Source: a virus (Duplodnaviria; Heunggongvirae; Uroviricota; Caudoviricetes). Taken from it: a DNA stretch of 8,112 nucleotides. A program made the translations under genes and the position numbers. Shown piece after piece: positions 470 to 8,112 of the stretch. Under the pieces are notes generated by a model, which was not told where the DNA came from, searched no databases, and saw nothing but the letters and a program-made list of their open reading frames with translations. Location: IMG/VR virus record IMGVR_UViG_2925877141_000003. One strand, 5' to 3'. Positions within the stretch are counted from its first letter, which is position 1. Every line of letters begins with the position of its first letter.

Positions 470-607
470 TCATACTCCTGCTCCTGTCAGGGTTTTGGCG
501 TAATTCTTCAGTATTCGGTAATCGGTCAAAACAGAACCGGGGAAACGATATAAGCGCAGACGCCCCCAGCGGTGGCGAAGAAGTTCTGCCATATTAAACT
601 CAAACAT
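470..607 (-). CDS. ylcG: Small DLP12-type prophage protein YlcG (45 aa)
   Basis: Minus-strand translation MFEFNMAELLRHRWGRLRLYRFPGSVLTDYRILKNYAKTLTGAGV, read by hand. ATG at 607-605 overlaps the native rusA stop (TGATG). Stop TGA is the complement of 470-472. Sits between rusA and quuD as in DLP12. Confidence 0.7.
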   Translation of the reverse strand: MFEFNMAELLRHRWGRLRLYRFPGSVLTDYRILKNYAKTLTGAGV

Positions 608-678
608 CATTCATTCCCCATTTCGGTGATGGTCAGTTCCAGCCTCCCACCTTTGGTAACAGGCATCTTCACAACGCG

Positions 679-969
679 TTAATCAACGACCTGAGCATCA
701 TCCAGCCAGAAACCTGCTTTAGTGAGTGCGTCAAAAGCGGCTTTTTGCAGATTATCCAGGTCACGGCGACGGCGATCCGGCATGTGGCACTCAATGCGGA
801 TTTTCACAGGCATAGCCAGGCCGATATCCAGCATTGCGTTTTTAATGATTCGGGCGACGTTATCGCGGTATGCCTGCCCCTCTGCGCTGACGTGCGTGCG
901 CCCGCGATTATGGCGGTAATAGCGATTATTGCTCGGAGGCCAGGGTAATGTGATGTTGTAGGTATTCAC
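679..969 (-). CDS. rusA: Holliday-junction resolvase RusA, C-terminally truncated: in-frame TAA at codon 97 where the family has Tyr; native frame would run on to 607
   Basis: Translation [96 protein letters not shown] then TAA (complement of 679-681). The same frame continues RVVKMPVTKGGRLELTITEMGNE to TGA at 609-607. GTG start at 969-967 overlaps the ybcO stop (GTGA). The 154-aa ORF in the track is an upstream over-extension. Confidence 0.82.
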
Positions 970-1256
970 GCCTTGATTACCCCCTCTTTCATCCAGATAA
1001 CCTGCGTTCTCGCCATACCTTCCAGCGCGCATTCTTTTGCATATGCGGCATCGACAAAATGTGTGCGGCGGTCGATTTCGTCGTGGCAGGCAGAACATGC
1101 AATGGTGGCAATCAGGTCTGGCGGTTTGGTACCGGTGCCGCACAATCCAGTCAGCCGGATATGTGCCAGTACAGACGTTTCAGGGTTGCCATTACATACG
1201 CCAAGGATTCTTACCTGGCATTCCCGACCACGCGCTGCTTTTCTCAAATCAGCCAT
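966..1256 (-). CDS. ybcO: YbcO-like DUF1364 protein (putative nuclease, cysteine-rich)
   Basis: Translation [99 protein letters not shown] at 1256-1254 is preceded by a strong SD (AAGGAGGAATCATG) and overlaps the ninE stop. Confidence 0.85.
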
Positions 1257-2300: not shown

Positions 2301-3803
2301 ATGACTCAAACTCCACTATTACTTGCAATCATATTTTTATTGGTTGTTCTTGTTCTATATATAGCTGCAATCAAACGCATCAAAAAAATACAATTAGAAT
2401 TAAGTGATAGCAATCAAAAAAATGAAGAATACAAATCTCGCTTTGCAGATTATTTTAATGTGGAAGAGGAATGTAAGAAGCTTATTGAGAAAACAGAGCA
2501 AGAATGCTCCATTATAAAAGAAGAGTCCCAAAAAGTAAAAGAAAATGCCAATAATGAACTAACAAACACCATTGAAAAAATGGATGGTATCAATAAACAA
2601 ATCCAAGAACTAAGAAGAACTTATAAAGAGAAGAAAGAAATATATGATAAGCTAGTAAAGCAAATTTCTATTTATTCAGAAGATGTTGAACTAGCCGAAC
2701 TAGGATTTTACGAACCTCATTTTAATTTTGAAGATTCAGAGCAATTTAAAAACAAAATAAAATCCATCAGGGATGAACAGAAATTAATGCTGCGGGATAA
2801 AACCCACTCTGGTGCAGTATATTGCACAACCCAATGGACTGTTGAAGGCTCTCGAGCAGAGGGTAAAAAAATGACAGACAGAAATATTAGGCTAACTACT
2901 AGAGCATTTAATAATGAATGTGATGCTGCAATTAGTAATTGCACGTGGAAAAATATCACTAAAATGGAAGAACGCATCACAAAGGCATTTGAGGCCATAA
3001 ATAAACTAAACGAGCAAAATCACATATATATAAATACTAAATACCTTAATAAAAAACTTGAGGAGTTGTGGCTTACCCATGAATATCGTGAGCAAAAACA
3101 GAAAGAAAAAGAAGAACAGGCAGAAATAAGGGCACAAATGAGAGAGGAGGAGCGTGCACAACGAGAAATAGAAAAGGCCATGCAAGACGCAGAGGCAGAA
3201 GAGCGCCGTTATAAAAAAGCAATTGAAGCTGCAAGAAAGGAAATGGAAAAAGTTACTGGTGACATGAAGCAGCGCCTCGAAAATCGCATTGCCGAACTAG
3301 AACAGAGTTTGTCGCAGGCTGAATCAAAGCATCAAAGAGCATTATCCATGGCACAACAAACCAAACAAGGTCATGTTTATATTATTTCGAACATAGGTTC
3401 TTTTGGGGAGAATGTTTATAAAATAGGCATGACACGACGTCTTGATCCACAAGACCGTGTAAATGAGCTTGGTGATGCATCTGTTCCTTTTATTTTTGAT
3501 GTGCATGCCATGATTTATTCGGAGGACGCTCCATCATTAGAAAAAAAACTACATGATGTCTTCGATAAAAAGAGAGTCAATCTTGTAAATCGTAGAAAAG
3601 AGTTTTTCTATGTTACTCTGGATGAGATCAAAGAAGCTGTTAAAAAACACTCTGATTCAGAAATTGAATTTATTGAGACAGCAGTCGCAAAAGACTTTAA
3701 TGAGTCATTGGCTATTCGTAATCATGAAAATAAAAAAATCGACAACAGCAACTCATCAATCATACTTGAGCGAAAAATCACAGAGTTTGCAGATGCAATT
3801 TAA
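2301..3803 (+). CDS. Membrane-anchored coiled-coil protein with C-terminal GIY-YIG/T5orf172 nuclease-like domain (DUF4041 or SNIPE-like architecture); candidate anti-phage effector
   Basis: 500-aa ORF with SD-like AAGGA at 2287-2291. N-terminal hydrophobic helix LLLAIIFLLVVLVLYIAAI, then about 300 residues of K/E/Q/R-rich coiled coil. C-terminal GHVYIISNIGSFGENVYKIGMTRRLDPQDRVNELGD (from nt 3369) fits the GIY-x(10)-YKIG-x(3)-R...E pattern. Confidence 0.85.
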   Translation: MTQTPLLLAIIFLLVVLVLYIAAIKRIKKIQLELSDSNQKNEEYKSRFADYFNVEEECKKLIEKTEQECSIIKEESQKVKENANNELTNTIEKMDGINKQIQELRRTYKEKKEIYDKLVKQISIYSEDVELAELGFYEPHFNFEDSEQFKNKIKSIRDEQKLMLRDKTHSGAVYCTTQWTVEGSRAEGKKMTDRNIRLTTRAFNNECDAAISNCTWKNITKMEERITKAFEAINKLNEQNHIYINTKYLNKKLEELWLTHEYREQKQKEKEEQAEIRAQMREEERAQREIEKAMQDAEAEERRYKKAIEAARKEMEKVTGDMKQRLENRIAELEQSLSQAESKHQRALSMAQQTKQGHVYIISNIGSFGENVYKIGMTRRLDPQDRVNELGDASVPFIFDVHAMIYSEDAPSLEKKLHDVFDKKRVNLVNRRKEFFYVTLDEIKEAVKKHSDSEIEFIETAVAKDFNESLAIRNHENKKIDNSNSSIILERKITEFADAI

Positions 3804-3828
3804 TTAATTTGTAGTTAAAACAAAACAG

Positions 3829-3858
3829 GCATCGTTGATACTTTTTGGTCAGCGATGC
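3829..3858 (+). terminator. Hairpin downstream of the nuclease-like gene (10-bp stem, 10-nt loop), possible terminator or RNA-stability element
   Basis: 3829-3838 gcatcgttga pairs with 3849-3858 tcagcgatgc (one G-U pair). Only TT follows, so the U-tract is weak. Confidence 0.3.
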
Positions 3859-4037
3859 TTACATCCTCCTCTCGGAAAACGTCGATTACTTGCAACTTTA
3901 TTTTTAATTTCCAGCAGCAAGTACTAATGCACAACCTCCATTACATACTGATTTGAACATCACGAATCCCGCCTCTAGCTTAAACTACAAAGTATTACCA
4001 GAATCAATCTTATTCATAATTAAACTCCACAGACCAA

Positions 4038-4101
4038 TTGAACATATGAATCCATATTGATATGCTACATCACAATGTGTTAACCATTAGATAACACATT
4101 G
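4038..4101 (+). promoter_or_regulatory. Candidate promoter (TTGAAC, 17-nt spacer, TATGCT) followed by a perfect 10-bp inverted repeat (candidate operator) upstream of the HD gene
   Basis: TTGAAC at 4038-4043 and TATGCT at 4061-4066. Inverted repeat caatgtgtta (4074-4083), spacer ccattaga, taacacattg (4092-4101), about 60 nt upstream of the ATG at 4163. SD-like AAGGAAA at 4151-4157. Confidence 0.3.
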
Positions 4102-4162
4102 AAACTATAAACATCATTACTATTTAAATTTCGTATTATAACTACAGCAAAAGGAAAGCCTC

Positions 4163-5710
4163 ATGACAAACAAAAACAAACTTGAGAACTTTGAAGACTT
4201 ACTTCTGGGGAAGTTTTTAGATCCCATACATGGAGTGATTCGAATAACTAAGCTAGAAAAAAAGATAATTGACCATCCTTTATTCCAACGACTACGAGAT
4301 ATCAGGCAGAACACGTTTCTATATAAAGTATTTCCTTCTGCAATGCACTCTCGCTTTGAACACTCTGTCGGTGTAATGCATTTATCGTATGAGATTTTGA
4401 AAAATATAAATTTGAATGCATTAATTTATGACCGAAAAAATATGGGCATTGATCTATATTTAGATATAAAAAAAATGCCTTCAAGTCTTATACAGGAGTT
4501 ACGTATTGCAGCATTGTTACACGATGTTGGGCATGGCCCACTTGCCCACCAATTCGATAGTTTTGCAATATCCGTAAAAGATTTCAAAGAAAAATGCAAA
4601 ACTGAAGGAAATAAACAATACGATAAGATTATATCTTTAAGTGATAATGACAAGTTAACCCACGAACAAGTATCATGTATTTTTATTAAAGAAATTATTG
4701 AAGAATTAAAAAATGAAGCCCAAGATAAATCAAATGACGACGATGTCTATAAAGAAAACATAGCGGCTATTAATCCAGAAAGCATTATAAAAATTGTTGA
4801 TAAAAGATATGATTTTAAAAATAACATTGAGGGAGTAAATGTATATCCTTTATTAGGTTCAATCATATCATCTTCACCTATAGATGCGGACAGAATGGAC
4901 TACCTACTTAGAGATAGCTACTTCTCCGGCGTTAAATATGGGATTTATGATTATGGACGATTATTAATGTCATTTATTCCTGTGAAAGTTGAAAATAGTG
5001 TTTACCTGGCATATAAAGAAAGTGGTATGGATTCAATACTAGAATTTGCCAATGCAAGAAGTGGGCTTTATAGTCAAGTTTATTTTCATAAGACCAATCG
5101 TGCACTATCTGCGATGCTTAACAAAGCGTGTTCTAGAAAAAAAACTGATGATGTTGTCTCTTTAAAATCTAAAAACACTCTCATTGAGTCCATCAAACAC
5201 TTTTATCGTGAAAACCCAGACAAAACGTTTTTAGAAAACACTCTTAAAAACACATTAGATAAAAATTCTCAAGCTATAATTCAAGATATTGTTGATAGAA
5301 ATGTTTGGAAAAAAATATATGAAAAAAAACACACGTTTTCTAATGTTAACATTTCCGACAACAGATACAAAGAATATAAACAAAATATATCTAAGAAAAT
5401 CAACAAAATCATTGAGGATAATTTAAAAGGAGATGAATGGGTTCTTGATTTTCAGATTGAAGATAACTTTAAAGATATCGATACAAGTCAAGCTAAAATA
5501 ATAAAAAAAGAAACAGGCGGCAAGTATACAATAAATGATTTATGTAAGTATAACGATGTACTTCAACCCTATCACTATGTTAAATTCTTTATTCGAGTTT
5601 TTGTTTCTAAGACAACTCAACTCCAAAACACCGAAGAAATTAATGTGTTAATAAAAAAAATAGATAAATGTCTTAATGATGAGATTGAACATATTAAAAA
5701 AGACAAGTAG
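4163..5710 (+). CDS. HD-domain phosphohydrolase of the SAMHD1-like dNTP triphosphohydrolase family (COG1078-type); candidate dNTP-depleting defence protein
   Basis: 515-aa ORF. N-terminus DPIHGVIRITKLEKKIIDHPLFQRLRDIRQ, then HSRFEHSVGVMHL, LLHDVGHGPLAHQFD and PIDADRMDYLLRDSYFSGV, the characteristic His / His-Asp / Asp metal-ligand motifs of this family. The C-terminal roughly 200 residues are K/N-rich and unassigned. Confidence 0.88.
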   Translation: MTNKNKLENFEDLLLGKFLDPIHGVIRITKLEKKIIDHPLFQRLRDIRQNTFLYKVFPSAMHSRFEHSVGVMHLSYEILKNINLNALIYDRKNMGIDLYLDIKKMPSSLIQELRIAALLHDVGHGPLAHQFDSFAISVKDFKEKCKTEGNKQYDKIISLSDNDKLTHEQVSCIFIKEIIEELKNEAQDKSNDDDVYKENIAAINPESIIKIVDKRYDFKNNIEGVNVYPLLGSIISSSPIDADRMDYLLRDSYFSGVKYGIYDYGRLLMSFIPVKVENSVYLAYKESGMDSILEFANARSGLYSQVYFHKTNRALSAMLNKACSRKKTDDVVSLKSKNTLIESIKHFYRENPDKTFLENTLKNTLDKNSQAIIQDIVDRNVWKKIYEKKHTFSNVNISDNRYKEYKQNISKKINKIIEDNLKGDEWVLDFQIEDNFKDIDTSQAKIIKKETGGKYTINDLCKYNDVLQPYHYVKFFIRVFVSKTTQLQNTEEINVLIKKIDKCLNDEIEHIKKDK

Positions 5711-5752
5711 AGCCCCCCTGATGTTTTAAAAAAACATCTTAACTATAAACAA

Positions 5753-5787
5753 AACGCCATTAGTTACTCTCAGTAACTAGTGGCGTT
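5753..5787. terminator. Near-perfect 16-bp stem hairpin (3-nt loop) downstream of the HD gene; T-rich tract lies on the minus-strand side, possibly bidirectional
   Basis: 5753-5768 aacgccattagttact pairs with 5772-5787 agtaactagtggcgtt (one G-U pair), loop ctc. On the minus strand it is followed by TTTTGTTTATAG. Confidence 0.4.
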
Positions 5788-5823
5788 CATGTCTAATGAT
5801 TGATCCGCAGTATTATCTGGTGC

Positions 5824-6058: not shown

Positions 6059-6286
6059 CCATCAAATCAAGTAATAACTAATCTCCCATATAACGATGAA
6101 ACCATGCAGGAGATTAACACTCTGCTGATTGCCCTGGACAAAACATGGGATGACGACTTATTGCCGCTCTGTTCCCAGATATTTCGCCGCGACATTCGCG
6201 CATCGTCAGAACTGACACAGGCCGAAGCAGTGAAAGCTCTTGGATTCCTGAAACAGAAAGCCTCTGAACAGAAGGTGGCTGCATGA
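6059..6286 (+). pseudogene. bet: 3' remnant of the lambda bet (Red-beta) gene; only the last ~60 codons remain, 5' part replaced by cargo
   Basis: Translation ...[62 protein letters not shown] matches the Bet C-terminus as I recall it. Stop TGA (6284-6286) overlaps the exo ATG (ATGA) as in lambda. The frame is open from the stop at 6056-6058; recognisable homology starts near 6095. Confidence 0.8.
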
Positions 6287-6963
6287 CACCGGACATTATC
6301 CTGCAGCGTACCGGGATCGACATGAGAGCTGTCGAACAGGGGGATGATGCGTGGCACAAATTACGGCTCGGCGTCATCACCGCTTCAGAAGTTCACAATG
6401 TGATAGCAAAACCCCGCTCCGGAAAGAAATGGCCTGACATGAAAATGTCCTACTTCCACACCCTGCTGGCTGAGGTTTGCACCGGTGTGGCTCCGGAAGT
6501 TAACGCTAAGGCGCTGGCCTGGGGAAAACAGTACGAGAACGACGCCAGAGCCCTGTTTGAGTTTACTTCCGGCGTTAATGTTACTGAATCCCCGATCATC
6601 TATCGCGACGAAAGTATGCGTACCGCCTGCTCTCCCGATGGTTTATGCAGTGACGGCAATGGCCTTGAGCTGAAATGCCCGTTTACCTCCCGGGATTTCA
6701 TGAAGTTCCGGCTCGGTGGTTTCGAGGCCATAAAGTCGGCTTACATGGCCCAGGTGCAGTACAGCATGTGGGTGACGCGAAAAGATGCCTGGTACTTTGC
6801 CAACTATGACCCGCGTATGAAGCGTGAAGGCCTGCATTATGTCGTGGTTGAGCGGGATGAAAAGTACATGGCGAGTTTTGACGAGATGGTGCCGGAGTTC
6901 ATCGAAAAAATGGACGAGGCACTGGCTGAAATTGGTTTTGTATTTGGGGAGCAATGGCGATGA
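6283..6963 (+). CDS. exo: Lambda-type exonuclease (Red-alpha, Exo), full length (226 aa)
   Basis: Translation [54 protein letters not shown]...[15 protein letters not shown] is essentially lambda Exo end to end. Confidence 0.95.
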
Positions 6964-7056
6964 AGCATCCTCACGATAATATCCGGGTATTCGCTCCCGG
7001 GCGGGAAACGAATTAAGGAATCTCTTGGCACAAAGGACAAGCGGCAAGCTCAGGAG

Positions 7057-8112
7057 TTGCACGACAAGCGAAAAGCAGAACTCTGGCGAGTAGAAAAGCT
7101 AGGGGATTTACCTGATGTCACTTTTGAAGAGGCCTGCCTAAGATGGCTTGAGGAAAAAGCTGATAAAAAATCTCTCGATTCAGATAAAAGCCGGATTGAG
7201 TTCTGGCTTGAACATTTTGAGGGTATAAGGCTTAAAGATATCTCGGAGGCAAAGATTTACTCTGCTGTAAGCAGAATGCATAACAGAAAGACGAAAGAAA
7301 TATGGAAACAGAAAGTTCAGGCCGCCATCAGGAAAGGTAAAGAACTGCCTGTTTATGAACCAAAGCCAGTATCAACTCAGACAAAGGCAAAGCATCTTGC
7401 CATGATAAAGGCCATTCTCCGTGCTGCAGAACGCGACTGGAAGTGGCTGGAAAAAGCGCCTGTCATCAAGATACCAGCGGTCAGAAACAAGCGAGTCAGA
7501 TGGCTGGAAAAGGAGGAAGCAAAACGCCTTATTGATGAGTGCCCCGAACCACTGAAATCTGTCGTCAAGTTTGCGCTGGCAACTGGTCTGAGAAAGTCGA
7601 ACATCATAAATCTGGAATGGCAACAAATCGACATGCAGCGACGAGTTGCCTGGGTGAATCCAGAAGAGAGCAAATCAAACCGCGCCATTGGTGTGGCGCT
7701 GAACGATACCGCCTGTAAAGTGTTGCGTGATCAAATAGGCAAGCATCACAAATGGGTGTTTGTACATACCAAGGCGGCTAAGCGAGCAGATGGAACATCA
7801 ACGCCTGCGGTCAGGAAGATGCGCATCGACAGCAAGACATCATGGCTATCAGCTTGTCGTCGTGCAGGAATTGAAGATTTCCGTTTCCATGACCTCAGAC
7901 ACACCTGGGCAAGCTGGCTGATTCAGTCAGGCGTCCCATTATCAGTGCTTCAGGAAATGGGCGGATGGGAGTCCATAGAAATGGTTCGTAGGTATGCTCA
8001 CCTTGCGCCTAATCATTTGACAGAGCATGCGAGGAAAATAGACGACATTTTTGGTGATAATGTCCCAAATATGTCCCACTCTGGAATTATGGAGGATATA
8101 AAGAAGGCGTAA
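7057..8112 (+). CDS. int: Tyrosine integrase (P22/DLP12-family), N-terminally truncated; start codon uncertain (TTG at 7057 is the first canonical start)
   Basis: Catalytic signature [10 protein letters not shown] and LAPNHL with the Tyr in RRYAHL; stop TAA at 8110-8112. In-frame integrase-like sequence [27 protein letters not shown] already begins near 6988, directly after the exo stop, with no ATG or GTG. Confidence 0.85.

Follow-up and report, generated by a model that had tools for sequence, protein, structure and literature searches.

Does the rusA gene in this stretch of Escherichia coli prophage DNA (8,112 bases, hereafter the window) end early because of an inherited mutation, a sequencing error or a naturally shorter gene, and could its shortened product still act as a Holliday-junction resolvase? 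The question arises from an in-frame TAA at 679-681 on the minus strand, which interrupts the rusA frame at codon 97. A first inspection of the letters (the sequence-only reading) had explained this stop as a single-base change of a Tyr codon (TAY) to TAA in a decaying cryptic prophage, and had offered a sequencing error as the alternative.

Translation of the minus strand of 607-969 recovered the TAA within the rusA frame. The full ancestral frame, now a pseudogene, runs from a GTG start at 969-967 to the original TGA at 609-607; this TGA overlaps the ATG (610-608) of ylcG (470-610, minus strand, 46 amino acids) as ATGA, as the sequence-only reading had described. At the other end, the TGA of ybcO (966-1256, minus strand, 96 amino acids, with a Pfam YbcO match) overlaps the rusA start as GTGA. 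The remaining ORF (682-969, minus strand) comprises 96 codons encoding RusA residues 1-96, and it is followed, past the TAA, by an untranslated relic of codons 98-120 (610-678, minus strand; RVVKMPVTKGGRLELTITEMGNE). Both earlier figures hold: Tyr97 and the 23 codons after it make 24 lost codons, and the product has 96 amino acids. A longer listed ORF of 154 amino acids (679-1143, minus strand) is no separate gene; it is an artefact that arises when the rusA frame is run upstream to an in-frame GTG within ybcO.

When set base by base against its counterpart in E. coli K-12 MG1655, the window rusA is identical at 361 of 363 nucleotides. One of the two differences, nt 14 G>A, replaces Ser5 with Asn (S5N), while the other, nt 291 C>A (window position 679, G>T on the plus strand), converts TAC (Tyr97) into TAA. 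The 23 codons past the TAA encode K-12 RusA residues 98-120 with no difference, and they are therefore no chance open frame; the K-12 RusA sequence itself agrees with PDB 1q8r across all 120 residues. Alignment with RusA of related strains upheld the proposed nonsense change, as codon 97 is TAC in K-12, in O157 and in the nearest intact relative. With a sense codon in the relatives and a homologous frame that continues past the stop, this rusA is a pseudogene by nonsense mutation. It should be noted that the DNA search, in which the next-best matches differed at three bases, had suggested that S5N was a second private mutation; this was rejected, as the intact Asn5 protein (P0121) is common and present on at least 1000 contigs.

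The window comes from a defective lambdoid prophage of DLP12 type, in which it extends from quuD into intD, where it ends. This assignment is based on the order of the nin region (ybcN-ninE-ybcO-rusA-ylcG-quuD, followed by an nmpC-like porin gene), in which YbcO, RusA and phage antiterminator Q were matched by Pfam, and on the order fimZ, tRNA-Arg (argU in K-12), intD in the E. coli chromosomes EcPNK006 and M23917, which is that of the DLP12 integration site. The picture of a decaying cryptic prophage was also borne out: bet is truncated, essD (lysis) and the tail genes are fragments, and the annotation of the remnant in EcPNK006 and M23917 contains no N, cI, cro, O or P region. The remaining bet is a C-terminal fragment of about 200 bp beside the region of an HD-domain gene (window about 6090-8112, plus strand; 899-2925 of L001), and exo (6283-6963, plus strand, YqaJ domain) appears intact.

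Two further genes lie elsewhere in the window. The ORF at 2301-3803 (plus strand), divergent from the ybcN-rusA-quuD block, encodes a 500 amino acid protein with an N-terminal hydrophobic stretch, likely transmembrane, and with DUF4041 and T5orf172/MUG113 (GIY-YIG-like) domains. Along its whole length the protein fits PD-Lambda-1, an anti-phage defence model of PADLOC (E = 5e-198), and its relatives in RefSeq are named "SNIPE associated domain-containing protein". Just downstream, the ORF at 4163-5710 (plus strand) encodes a 515 amino acid HD-domain protein (Pfam HD, E = 8e-7) with a weak PADLOC match to dGTPase (9e-4). The same pair adjoins replication genes in a more complete prophage of strain B-1109 (L004), and the gene of the HD-domain protein could be another gene for defence, or else a partner.

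Over all 8,112 bases, the window agrees at 100% identity with the complete chromosomes of two urine isolates, EcPNK006 (Dallas, USA) and M23917 (Buenos Aires, Argentina). The same rusA allele was found in the complete genomes of 2017-03-3CC (faeces, Viet Nam) and Ec-U7 (urine, Burkina Faso). Among the complete E. coli genomes having this stretch, the exact 61-mer centred on the TAA was present in 4 of 3343; the corresponding 61-mer with TAC (Tyr) at codon 97 was found in 2292 records, that with TAT (Tyr) in one and that with TAG (stop) in none. The four complete genomes with TAA represent, by their sequences, one clonal event. Beyond complete genomes, at least 132 contigs in NCBI, ENA and Logan encode the exact 96 amino acid product (P0122), under accessions that include EMW37282.1 and BEC52397.1. 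In ten further loci that were read, the rusA DNA was identical in all ten, and every carrier of the TAA allele read in this N5/DLP12 background also has the linked N5 variant.

The remnants that surround this allele vary in structure. In 2017-03-3CC and Ec-U7, which are 99.97-99.99% identical to each other, the exo/bet'/HD/DUF4041/ybcN block is missing and the internal structure differs from that of EcPNK006 and M23917, while EcPNK006 and 2017-03-3CC are 100% identical over common segments of 2570 and 2024 bp. The ten further loci vary beyond quuD and the porin gene, some having an intact holin and lysozyme and others a deletion that extends to tail-fibre fragments; in one locus unrelated genes replace the porin gene, and in one a different gene occupies the SNIPE position. 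Because the allele is identical in many independent assemblies with structurally varying remnants, we conclude that it is real, inherited and older than several later rearrangements of the remnant. Among the carriers, the locus L015 (GCA_019038285.1, about 3586-5795) represents a further structural variant; it encodes a 125 amino acid Q protein, with lipocalin and 2-thiouracil desulfurase-like genes downstream in place of the porin. The intD protein is WP_134778651.1 (1146 nt) in the remnant described here and WP_001299447.1 (1164 nt) in 2017-03-3CC and Ec-U7.

To judge what the truncation removes, the 96 amino acid product was compared with the Pfam RusA profile (PF05866), with homologues and with known structures. 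The product scored 73 bits against PF05866 (E = 4.2e-20; gathering score 22.8), covering profile positions 1-106 of 124, compared with 1-123 for the intact protein; the profile extends 18 positions past the stop. It is 98% identical to the full-length homologue P0004 over the aligned part. The RusA catalytic residues Asp70, Asp72, Asp91 and Lys76 (PMC10956419, PMC1636454) all lie upstream of the stop and are invariant in an alignment of the product with 25 homologues (69-97% identity to the reference, almost all of 118-122 amino acids). In this alignment, eight positions of the lost segment are at least 90% conserved (Y97, R98, V99, M102, G107, G108, L110 and T115).

The RusA monomer consists of two helices that flank a four-stranded mixed β-sheet (PMC1636454). 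An AlphaFold (AF2) model of a full-length RusA homologue, with a mean pLDDT of 85, agreed with the crystal structures 2h8e, 1q8r and 2h8c (TM 0.94-0.97, rmsd about 0.8-1.2 Å) and placed β1 at residues 3-9, α1 at 29-44, β2 at 55-62, α2 at 71-85, β3 at 94-102 and β4 at 109-116. With translation ending at Asp96, β3 is cut to three residues and β4 is missing altogether, the relic past the TAA having encoded the end of the former and all of the latter, such that half of the core sheet is lost and the product does not make up a complete RusA fold; R69, the flexible 15-28 loop, the N-terminal strand and both helices are retained. In its full-length form RusA acts as a Mg2+-dependent dimer that cleaves Holliday junctions symmetrically and can suppress ruv mutants. 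Because a segment conserved in homologues, the greater part of β3 together with β4, is missing, RusA(1-96) is, as judged from the model, most likely misfolded or unfolded, degraded, and inactive as a Holliday-junction resolvase. A literature search found no published C-terminal truncation of RusA. A naturally shorter gene end was considered and rejected: profile, crystal structures and homologues alike extend to about residue 116-120. The only proteins in the databases with ...AQVVD at their end, which could have pointed to such an end, are either the same nonsense allele called as a CDS (P0122) or partial products at contig ends.

Stops at nt 291 also occur outside the N5/DLP12 background. 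A look-up of the 96 amino acid product with Ser5, a search that could find only products ending at residue 96, returned two contigs with a different lambdoid module, in which NinB-Dam-NinX stands upstream in place of ybcO. The ENA contig ERZ27287492 (L019; rusA at 1501-1791) has TAA at nt 291, the Logan contig SRR13992057 (L018; rusA at 1501-1791) has TAG, both are of Ser5 background, and they are 98.9% identical to each other. Comparison of these sequences with the window allele shows at least two independent mutational events at rusA nt 291. In addition, four short-read contigs from different samples and assemblers (L020-L023) all end at rusA nt 290, which implies a branch in the assembly graph at the base of nt 291. 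Heterogeneity within the samples was considered for these ends and set aside in favor of query bias, together with contig breaks at several other rusA positions; partial RusA products of 66, 73, 78, 89, 92 and 106 amino acids are also on record. Taking into account that rusA is multi-copy in some genomes (up to three places per genome), the ends at nt 290 probably reflect query bias combined with this multiplicity.

The proposal that the true base is C, with codon 97 read as TAC and rusA intact, would fit the fact that the difference is one base, and contigs that stop one base short of nt 291 could in principle reflect a site-specific problem of base calling. However, such contig ends are expected from a look-up that covered 96 amino acid products only, and the same allele is found in four complete genomes, each sequenced independently and each from another country, in the ten loci read and, as its product, on at least 132 contigs. 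An error would also not follow a lineage, as the linkage to N5 in all carriers read indicates that this allele does. The sequencing-error alternative of the sequence-only reading was discarded on these grounds, and we give an error of sequencing or assembly practically no weight. Equally negligible is the chance that the TAA is read through or suppressed so that full-length RusA is still produced: the frame past the TAA is perfectly intact, but this is expected after any recent mutation, and the annotated flanks of the carriers contain tRNA-Arg only and no suppressor tRNA. UAA is, moreover, generally known as the stop codon least prone to readthrough in E. coli. That RusA(1-96) itself works, be it as a weakened resolvase, as a junction binder or as a dominant-negative partner of full-length RusA from co-resident lambdoid prophages, has somewhat more to commend it. 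The four catalytic residues, R69, the 15-28 loop and both helices are kept, in crystals of D70N the helices are displaced at the dimer interface, suggesting a role in dimerisation (PMC1636454), and the allele persists on many contigs. Nevertheless, two of the four core strands are absent, the lost segment is conserved across homologues, rusA is quiescent in K-12, and clonal descent of a neutral allele explains the persistence equally well, which makes a working protein very unlikely.

The recurrence of stops raises another alternative, namely that the loss of RusA at codon 97 is favored, whether because a potentially toxic resolvase is selected against or because nt 291 is a local mutational hotspot. 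The same nucleotide is stopped in two other prophage backgrounds, and this could point to selection or a hotspot over neutral loss. There are three such settings in total (TAA with N5 in DLP12, TAA with S5 and TAG with S5), and among the complete genomes the nonsense A at nt 291 outnumbers the synonymous T. However, the sampling is biased: because the look-up found only products ending at residue 96, the recurrence is no evidence of a hotspot. The four complete genomes with A count as a single clonal event, the S5 TAA allele could stem from a recombination event placed between nt 14 and nt 291, and a later A>G change inside a pseudogene could account for the TAG. Other rusA lesions, frameshifts as well as internal deletions, also exist elsewhere in the gene (P0017, P0081, P0117, P0119). 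Through the C>A change, ACCGCGTT (675-682, minus strand) becomes AACGCGTT, a perfect palindrome of 8 bp with an MluI site (ACGCGT) inside it. Template switching at this quasi-palindrome was considered as a cause of the recurrence and judged unlikely, as an 8-bp palindrome with a loop has a stem of 2 bp, too short for template-switch mutagenesis, and as the C>G change of the TAG allele would be left unexplained. We therefore consider a favored loss unlikely. Highly improbable, in our judgment, is the more specific proposal that codon 97 is a recurrent target, through selection that disables a resolvase harmful in a transcribed cryptic prophage, or through a helix-dimerising RusA(1-96) that poisons or modulates full-length RusA of incoming or co-resident phages.

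The explanation we prefer, with a probability of roughly 0.88 as a whole, is that rusA of this degraded DLP12-type prophage bears a genuine nonsense mutation acquired by descent, with a product that is most likely inactive and a loss that is probably neutral. A coding-strand C>A change turned TAC (Tyr97) into TAA in one E. coli lineage and was then passed on vertically in the DLP12-type remnant at the tRNA-Arg beside fimZ. Translation ends after Asp96. The product keeps the catalytic residues, the strand at its N terminus and the two helices, and the loss of half of the four-stranded sheet would most likely cause the fragment to misfold and be degraded, with resolvase activity gone. A cell with RuvABC would pay no cost for losing an accessory resolvase that is silent, and such a loss fits the stepwise decay of the remnant.

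The K-12 rusA gene is quiescent and suppresses ruv mutations only after an upstream insertion of IS2 or IS10 activates its transcription (PMC1636454, PMC10956419). Since K-12 rusA is quiescent and dispensable in the presence of RuvABC, its loss would be selectively neutral here if the same holds in the carriers. A consensus promoter and terminator scan of 1-2400 detected 6 promoter sites against 4.1 expected, which is no excess over shuffled sequence and does not bear on expression either way. Between the new stop and the ylcG start downstream of it there are now 68 nt (678-611), and because of this distance the translational coupling through the ATGA overlap is presumably lost. The sequences and structures show the mutation, its ancestral codon, its recurrence in many independent assemblies and the part of the fold that is removed, and it is by inference that we regard the product as inactive, the gene as unexpressed and the loss as neutral.

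The rusA of the window is a clean and datable case of point-mutational decay in a cryptic prophage, with little weight beyond correct annotation. The TAA allele could nevertheless mark a lineage, as it is linked to structurally varying DLP12 remnants on several continents. In the lineage of the carriers, rus-type suppression of ruv defects through activation of rusA by insertion sequences should be unavailable. In addition, submitter entries that give the 96 amino acid ORF as a normal RusA are better read as a pseudogene.

Compared with K-12 RusA of DLP12 (PDB 1q8r, 2h8c and 2h8e), the window allele is the same gene at the same prophage position (ybcN-ninE-ybcO-rusA-ylcG-quuD-porin, beside tRNA-Arg and fimZ), and it encodes all four catalytic residues (D70, D72, K76 and D91). 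In contrast to K-12 RusA, it stops at the Tyr97 codon, leaving residues 97-120 untranslated, and it has Asn instead of Ser at residue 5. It resembles other defective rusA alleles in public databases, such as those with a C-terminal frameshift (P0017, P0119), internal deletions (P0081, P0117) or a stop at codon 97 (TAG in L018, TAA in L019), in having an inactivating lesion of the same gene, whereas those alleles are separate mutational events in other prophage backgrounds. The rusA genes annotated by RefSeq/PGAP in EcPNK006, M23917, 2017-03-3CC and Ec-U7 are identical in sequence to that of the window, and in all four genomes they are labelled "crossover junction endodeoxyribonuclease RusA" with "internal stop" and so marked as a pseudogene, unlike the GenBank submitter annotations (EMW37282.1, BEC52397.1), in which the 96 amino acid ORF was entered as a normal CDS. 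The pseudogene is thus already flagged in RefSeq, and it is a case of ordinary gene decay in a cryptic prophage, with nothing new in kind.
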